A stretch of DNA of 62,700 nt, filler included, from Collodictyon triciliatum (Eukaryota), in assembly GCA_043381765.1 (NCBI GenBank). It is 7 parts of 7 records of this genome, joined end to end, with 100 filler letters (N's around TTAATTAATTAA, not from the genome) between each part and the next. Parts side by side here need not be neighbours in the genome. Positions count along the whole stretch, not along the records: positions 36,836 to 46,575 come from JBHJMP010002909.1; 6 more parts are not named here. One strand, 5' to 3'. Positions 45,900-46,575 of the stretch are shown here, in pieces (position 1 is the first letter of the stretch; the number at the start of each line of letters is the position of its first letter). The translations under genes and the position numbers were made by a program. The notes under the pieces are model-generated. The model was not told the DNA's origin. It saw only the letters and a program-made list of their open reading frames with translations, and made no database searches.

Positions 45900-46575
45900 T
45901 TATACTCTCTCTCTTTTGAATATAACAACATTGAGAAGATTTTGACTTTGGTCCGATAGGTATCGTTTGCATGGACGCTGCTTGGGCGGCCGGGTAGTGT
46001 AGAAGTAGTCGGTAATCAGGAATTGCATCCTGCGCTTTGGCCTGTAGCTAGGGTCTTGTGCCTGCATGAGAGATACAAGGCGATGTTTAATATCCTTCTC
46101 AGTCTCTTTCCACCATTCTCTTCTCGCGGTGTCTGAGTAGTAGAGAACGTGGAAGTGATGAAAGAAGTTGTTGAGGAAAGAGATTTGTATGATGTCATTC
46201 AACCTATTATCAGGAATGGGTGGCTGGTTGTTGAGTCTTGCTTTGCGTGGGTATATGCACGCTATCCACATAGTCCATAGCAAATGGCCTCGCGCCACTG
46301 CCCAGAATGTTTTTGCATCTGGACGCAGCTGTTGCAGAGGCCCAAATATCGCCTGGATTGGGCCAACAGCCGCAGCCGTCTTGAGAGTCAGTCGAAGAAT
46401 CTCACCGGCTGTTTTGTGCAGGTTTTGAGCGAAGGGACATTGCACATATGTGTGCTCAATGGATTCATCACCGTTGCTGCAAAGTGTGCATTGTTGGGAG
46501 ACTTTGCCAGCTTTTGCCGCGCGTGTGCCTATCCATAGCTCCCTATTGGTGATATTAAGCGTTAGAGAGCGGTGA
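45900..46575 (-). mobile_element. Non-LTR retrotransposon ORF2 C-terminus (L1/Tx1-like), open frame, cut by the contig end
   Basis: CTLCSNGDESIEHTYVQC knuckle, AIFGP, FWAVARGHLLWTMW, SFLN..YSD..RRE.W. A divergent relative of 17498-18051. Confidence 0.85.

Follow-up and report, generated by a model that had tools for sequence, protein, structure and literature searches.

The ORF2 tail of a LINE element in the DNA analysed here carries a canonical PIP box of the TD type, and this motif stands in register on the tails of diverged lineages of the element, where it is conserved at the protein level. As judged from sequence, we consider it probable, at roughly 0.7, that selection has kept the tail as a PCNA-binding PIP box at the C-terminus, in convergence with the Pogo transposase, which has a PIP, and with human L1, whose ORF2p depends on PCNA. 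We infer that the tail binds PCNA and has a role in insertion of the element. The window, that is, the whole stretch of DNA analysed (62.7 kb), strings together draft contigs of ~7-10 kb each, and adjacent blocks are not necessarily genomic neighbours. The blocks are separated by six-frame stop spacers of the form N44-TTAATTAATTAA-N44, located at 9765-9864, 16954-17053, 26809-26908, 36736-36835, 46576-46675 and 56406-56505. There is one gap of 933 N in the window, and the G+C content is mostly 30-43%.

LINE copies in the window

The copy under study (copy A, of lineage A) occupies 45754-46575 on the minus strand. It comprises ~150 nt of 3′ UTR and the ORF2 sequence preceding it, carries a 3′-terminal 12-mer at 45754-45765, and is cut on its 5′ side by the contig end, the N spacer starting at 46576. 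Its open frame, P0003 (45903-46574, minus strand; stop codon at 45900-45902), comprises the last 224 codons of ORF2 and encodes the C-terminal domain. A CCHC zinc knuckle with residues C29, C32, H41 and C46 of P0003 (46437-46490, minus strand) matched Pfam zf-RVT (PF13966) with an E value of 1.8e-6. The same domain was found in sister copies with E values of 4e-8 and 7e-9, and the CCHC columns of the knuckle are invariant in the family alignment A2. The assignment of the motif-bearing frame to a LINE ORF2, made in an initial annotation of this DNA, is upheld by the zf-RVT match. APE endonuclease and RT domains were seen only in a distant relative, P0014 (1226 aa; Exo_endo_phos, RVT_1 and zf-RVT according to Pfam), copy A being cut as described. 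By these sequence features the element belongs to an undescribed, CCHC-bearing LINE family, probably of the L1-like type (APE-type).

The minus-strand codons from 46043 to 45990 read RPKRRM-QFLITDYF-YTTR, and re-reading of the window gave the string of the initial annotation letter for letter. The PIP core QFLITDYF is located at 46002-46025 and its TD at 46008-46013 (minus strand); the core is recognised by its sequence, by the enrichment of the TD form and by its conservation in the family. The first R of the string is encoded at 46043-41, and within the core Q is encoded at 46025-23, I at 46016-14, T at 46013-11, D at 46010-08 and the F that ends YF at 46004-02. On its 5′ side the core is preceded by a basic cluster, RPKRR (46029-46043, minus strand), which was found in lineage A only. 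The +4 residue is an Arg with the codon CGG (45990-45992, minus strand), and K/R stands at this position in 12 of 21 family tails.

The motif had been described as lying in the tail of ORF2. This is so in the sister copies, which end 14 residues past the core, but in the window copy 33 codons separate the motif from the stop owing to an extra base. A C-rich run at 45984-45989 (minus strand) has one surplus base compared with a metagenome contig, the sole one of sequence run X2 over this site, which is without one base at 45986. Past this run the frame of copy A differs from the sister ending ...RPPSSVHANDG-stop of P0030, P0031 and P0033; the tails of P0030 and P0033 read ...TDYF-SATR-PPSSVHANDG-stop. 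Frame 1 of the window reads ...RPSSVHAND after the +4 Arg, which are the words of the sisters in another frame. Because these words are read in the other frame and the X2 contig is one base shorter, the 33-codon extension of copy A is a frameshift product. The PIP, the TD and the +4 Arg of copy A all lie upstream of the frameshift.

A second, 5′-truncated LINE copy (copy C, of lineage C) is located at 17503-18140 on the plus strand. It contains an in-frame TAG at 17755-17757, the ORF2 stop at 18049-18051 and the 12-mer at 18120-18131, which is followed by an A run. Copies A and C share 32% identity over 178 residues (tblastn, E 4e-29), with both motifs in register. The PIP core of copy C, QLAITDFF (18004-18027, plus strand), precedes the residues PVLASSQ and the stop, and its +4 residue is Ala (18037-18039). 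The earlier statement that the related element at 18004 keeps the TD-type PIP and is without the basic +4 residue was therefore correct. In DNA, copy C is 94% identical to the metagenome locus L001. The TAG of copy C corresponds to TGG (Trp) in L001, and L001 is itself frameshifted upstream. We read copy C and L001 as dead copies of a young lineage.

A third copy, also of lineage C, is an insert of 72 nt at 20898-20969 (minus strand). Its 5′ truncation is extreme: of the 3′ UTR just the final ~60 nt are left, with an A-rich tail. The insert is flanked by a perfect direct repeat of 14 bp, upstream at 20970-20983 and downstream at 20884-20897 (minus strand), which is the target-site duplication; two exact matches of the repeat were found versus 0 expected in 100 shuffles. 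The 3′-terminal 12-mer is common to the three copies and occurs exactly at 18120 (plus strand), 45754 (minus strand) and 20911 (minus strand). Thus the marks of target-primed reverse transcription found among the window copies are 5′ truncation, an A-rich 3′ end and a target-site duplication. The 72-nt insert adjoins, immediately upstream, an open frame of 1975 codons (20929-26808, plus strand) with ~25 WD40 repeats and, after them, over 1000 residues made up of Cys-rich CxxC-type repeats. These domains were recognised by eye, and the contig end cuts the frame. Since the first ~15 codons of this open frame are antisense LINE, the true gene start lies further in.

The eukaryotic content of the window comprises a U11 snRNA, a tRNA, an MCM exon, an ORF for an LRR-polycystin channel and the WD40/Cys-rich ORF. 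The U11 snRNA (2019-2151, minus strand) matched Rfam RF00548 over its full length with 55.3 bits, which indicates that the host has a minor spliceosome. The frame of the MCM P-loop exon (12573-13004, minus strand; Pfam E 1.1e-17) breaks off, which indicates that host genes have introns. The LRR-polycystin ORF (53263-56400, minus strand) joins LRR repeats to a polycystin domain and a PKD cation channel, which Pfam matched at E 3e-20 and 1.5e-10, and a part in its middle looks like a short in-frame intron that was read through. Cluster look-ups with these host sequences gave no usable taxon: the polycystin domain led to a mixture of rotifer, oomycete and ciliate clusters, the MCM exon to green algae and fungi. 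A G+C-rich block (0.47) with overlapping open frames at 43747-45307 (plus strand) adjoins the 3′ end of copy A and is a candidate mobile element or host gene. No Pfam match was found in the G+C-rich ORFs at 43747-45284 beside copy A, nor in 28744-29715 or 42576-43250. T/C-rich low-complexity tracts (A/G-rich in antisense) at 49113-49613 and 50094-51760 flank the 933-N gap and produce spurious ORFs in every frame, the longest reaching 500 codons. Several contigs terminate in tandem repeats, among them a 10-mer (16900-16953) and a 7-mer (46676-46810).

Family members and conservation of the tail

Run exhaustively against 1.84 billion representatives, phmmer returned 11 proteins at E ≤ 0.001. A profile search of 90% clusters gave 14 proteins, and cluster members gave 14 additional sequences. 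A profile search for DNA copies with alignment A2 matched 86 stretches, from which one metagenome locus (L001) was obtained. All these relatives come from metagenome-assembly contigs, 0.5-2.1 kb in length. Searches with P0003 and A3 for longer members, and the exhaustive representative search, yielded no full-length ORF2 of the PIP-bearing clade. As long candidates, the representative search returned only the distant P0014 and P0013, a spurious LRR protein that was rejected as a family member.

In the tree, the motif-bearing sequences form one clade with 100/100 support, comprising the lineages A, D, E and (B, C), with the base of the clade without resolution. The outgroup sequences P0012 and P0014 have no motif. 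Branch lengths between lineages A and C sum to ~1.7 changes per column.

Shared sequence words were found in 20 sequence runs from 16 studies, with word shares all ≤0.30; contigs were compared from runs X1, X2, X15 and X18, and these four runs alone were taken into account, for habitat as well. Contigs at least 85% alike to the window came from the freshwater DNA runs X1 (5 contigs) and X2 (38 contigs) and from the RNA libraries X15 and X18 (1 contig each). Among these four runs, only X2 covers the PIP codons of copy A; the missing cover in X1, X15 and X18 carries no weight. The contigs from RNA libraries lie at 46135-46574 (X15) and 46378-46574 (X18) and are no proof of transcription.

Twenty-one distinct tails of five sublineages were tallied. 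The clade members P0010 and P0026, whose tails are out of frame, were excluded, and P0027, the same record as L001, was counted once. The canonical PIP core is present in 18 of the 21 tails, TD in 18, K/R at +4 in 12 and the whole degron pattern in nine. Lineage A has seven tails (the window copy, P0030, P0031, P0033, P0029, P0011 and P0006), six with the core, six with TD and five with K/R at +4. The eight tails of lineage B (P0015, P0021-P0024, P0017, P0005 and P0025) include seven with the core and eight with TD; at +4, K/R stands in six and His in two. All four tails of lineage C (the window copy at 18004, L001, P0020 and P0028) have the core and TD, and none has K/R at +4. The single tail of lineage D (P0004) has the core, TN in place of TD, and no K/R at +4. 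That of lineage E (P0007) has N at position 4 of the core, TP in place of TD, and K/R at +4. Two cores of the other lineages are decayed, that of P0006 by the loss of one aromatic residue and that of P0023 by an L at position 7. The distance from the core to the end in unbroken copies is 7 residues in C and D, 9 in B, 13 in E and 14 in A.

Conservation was measured with one representative per lineage (n=5, pairwise identity 26-51%). The mean identity of the PIP window, which has 8 columns, is 0.575 versus 0.335 overall. Of 123 such windows it comes 11th, and among independent conserved blocks it is third, behind RGHxLW and LRYSD; conservation directly upstream of it is poor. Positions 1, 4, 5, 7 and 8 are kept, position 6 is mostly kept, and positions 2 and 3 are free, a pattern that is the signature of a PIP. 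Among three DNA copies (A, C and L001), synonymous differences were found at Q (caa/cag), I (att/atc), T (acc/act), D (gac/gat) and F8 (ttc/ttt). Such synonymous changes at kept residues argue against a constraint at the RNA level. The PIP box with TD that had been noted on the ORF2 tail is thus conserved in register over five sublineages with synonymous codon changes, and these patterns indicate real selection on it at the protein level.

The AF2 model of P0003 has a mean pLDDT of 70.7 and is helical to about residue 172. The pLDDT is below 50 over residues 182-224, where the core occupies 184-191; the alignment is shallow (14 rows), which makes the call of disorder a soft one. In a Foldseek search with this model, chains of human L1 ORF2p were the top rows with weak E values of 0.12-1.3 (first row E 0.12, prob 0.99). 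The model aligned to residues 1118-1269 of human L1 ORF2p over 149 residues with rmsd 5.0 and Z 7.2, a Z tied with that of unrelated helical proteins. Among PDB sequences, phmmer with the 32-residue tail as query found no match at E up to 10.

Readings of the conserved tail

We favour PCNA docking as the function of the tail. A PIP in a flexible tail behind a folded C-terminal domain would most likely tether the endonuclease/RT to DNA-loaded PCNA. With such a tether, target-primed reverse transcription would take place at intermediates of replication or repair; alternatively, the tether would recruit PCNA-dependent finishing enzymes. Several observations count against PCNA docking. All copies are fragments from short contigs, several are decayed and none is demonstrably active. 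The core of lineage E is degenerate, and the generic PIP pattern by itself is no rarer than chance in the window.

The initial annotation went beyond docking and proposed that the tail is a complete PIP degron. On this account, ORF2p of lineages A and B, once docked on chromatin-bound PCNA, would be ubiquitylated by CRL4-Cdt2 and then destroyed, and the element would in this way time or limit its own activity. We regard this as doubtful. As defined in the parts of PMC8871960 devoted to the motif, a PIP degron consists of a canonical PIP with TD at positions 5-6 and K/R at +4, and +3 is also important in human cells. Copy A agrees with this published definition in its canonical PIP, its TD and its basic +4 residue; its B+3 residue is Thr, which is not basic. 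The statement that every position fits stands for the PIP, the TD, the +4 Arg and the upstream basic cluster. Beyond copy A, the +3 residue is never basic in the family: it is T in A, P, S, I or L in B, L in C, I in D and S in E. The upstream basic cluster, for its part, was correctly noted in copy A, but it is confined to lineage A.

Nine of the 21 tails, four in lineage A and five in lineage B, fit the degron pattern fully. The basic +4 residue is R in A (5/7) and B (6/8) and K in the lone tail of E, and the two tails of lineage B with His at +4 belong to a single sublineage. It is suggestive that in unbroken tails of A, B and E no K/R other than the +4 residue occurs downstream of the core. 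Against this, lineages C (0/4) and D (0/1) keep the core without a basic +4 residue, so that the degron is not the function that conserves the motif family-wide. Of the conservation that a degron would call for among the copies, that of TD is largely found (18/21), but that of K/R at +4 extends only to 12/21. Lineage C, which is without the +4 base, nevertheless left in the window the insertion flanked by a target-site duplication. The tree, with the base of the clade without resolution, leaves the ancestral state of K/R at +4 undecided.

Selection for PCNA binding explains the +4 Arg equally well. According to passages of PMC8871960 and PMC6881253, a basic +4 residue and positive flanks raise the affinity for PCNA in themselves, and therefore the Arg does not discriminate between binding and destruction. 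Nor is it evident what the element would gain from its own destruction. We judge it unlikely from these tails that CRL4-Cdt2 truly has ORF2p of A and B as a substrate, with docking on DNA-loaded PCNA both placing the enzyme and marking it for destruction, which would amount to a built-in single-use limit. If it were true, the loss of the +4 base in C and D would be an escape from the single-use limit.

The conserved block might also serve a partner other than PCNA or a structural role, such as a contact within the ORF2 RNP or with another reader of paired aromatic residues. PIP-like motifs overlap with the motifs of other FF-reading partners, and the low-confidence model of the tail says nothing on contacts, both of which leave room for this reading. 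However, the kept and free positions are exactly those of the PIP consensus, with the high-affinity TD. The motif also lies C-terminally in a low-confidence tail, like the many PIP motifs in disordered regions that are mentioned in the part of PMC8871960 available to us. We hold a different partner or role to be quite improbable and return to PCNA docking as the preferred reading.

The motif patterns were counted in six frames of the window and in 200 block shuffles. The generic pattern Q..[ILMV]..[FY][FY] gave 8 matches versus a mean of 8.0 and was not enriched; one of these matches, QTILTSYF at 45334-45357 (minus strand), lies downstream of copy A and was counted as chance. The TD form of the PIP gave 2 matches versus a mean of 0.005, only one of the 200 shuffles having a single match. 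The full degron pattern gave 1 match in the window and none in the shuffles. A chance resemblance in decaying repeat DNA, which the generic pattern with its frequency equal to that of shuffles would allow, is extremely improbable, since both matches of the TD form are the two LINE tails at homologous positions and the motif is conserved over five lineages with synonymous codon changes.

Comparison with known systems

The proposal had been presented as not described. For PCNA binding by a retrotransposon RT this does not hold, as such binding is in print for human L1 ORF2p (PMC5371812, PMC7617806, PMC10830420, in the portions consulted); for a degron on a retrotransposon it agrees with our search. 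In the full-text literature searched, outside which most subscription journals lie, neither a terminal canonical PIP on a LINE ORF2 nor a PIP degron on any retrotransposon protein was found. Among the papers listed for non-LTR elements, PCNA and PIP, the on-topic ones deal with human L1, as judged by their titles and the beginnings of their abstracts.

Excerpts of the literature on human L1 describe that ORF2p binds PCNA and that the interaction is needed for retrotransposition (PMC5371812, PMC7617806, PMC10830420). The sites described are an internal PIP helix at ~404-419 between EN and RT and/or a non-canonical 'PUB' site in the wrist (PMC7617806, PMC10830420), and which of the two holds PCNA is presented as still debated (PMC7617806). 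Retrotransposition of L1 peaks in S phase, and ORF2p is found with PCNA at replication forks, according to sections of PMC5821460. The element of the window is like human L1 in being a LINE whose endonuclease/RT uses PCNA, the binding being predicted here. It is unlike human L1 in the place of the motif: the sites proposed there are internal, whereas here a canonical TD-type PIP stands behind the CCHC domain, on a flexible tail. The human ORF2p is 1275 residues long. The P0003 model aligns only to residue 1269, so that the tail is without a counterpart there, although the Z of 7.2 is not decisive. If PCNA docking is true, the C-terminal TD-type PIP would be an independent, convergent solution of LINEs to clamp docking. 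Such a case would speak for PCNA tethering as something that target-primed reverse transcription needs in general, rather than a peculiarity of mammals.

The well-known substrates of CRL4-Cdt2 (p21, Cdt1 and Set8) resemble copy A and 8 other tails in combining a PIP, TD and K/R at +4 in a disordered region. The basic cluster upstream of the PIP in lineage A is also like that in the p21 string quoted in the initial annotation. In contrast to these substrates, two of the five lineages do without the +4 base, and no basic residue stands at B+3. The natural tails with and without the +4 base would make up a simple peptide system in which to ask whether a retrotransposon enzyme may be a substrate of a PCNA-coupled ubiquitin ligase.

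Two groups of transposases are comparable in docking. The C-terminal PIP of the Pogo transposase binds PCNA, and Tigger and Lemi1 also have PIP boxes, with a role given as unclear in the passages concerned (PMC5371812, PMC4615156). What Pogo has in common with the present element is a canonical PIP box on a mobile-element enzyme, a likeness of description. It differs in being a cut-and-paste DNA transposon whose transposase has no homology with ORF2. Bacterial transposases (TnsE of Tn7 and IS families) bind the beta sliding clamp via a short consensus peptide, as stated in parts of PMC5371812 and PMC4549789. These are likewise enzymes of mobile elements that dock on a replication clamp by a short peptide, unlike the predicted docking of the LINE tail in that the clamp, the motif and the chemistry of transposition are all different.
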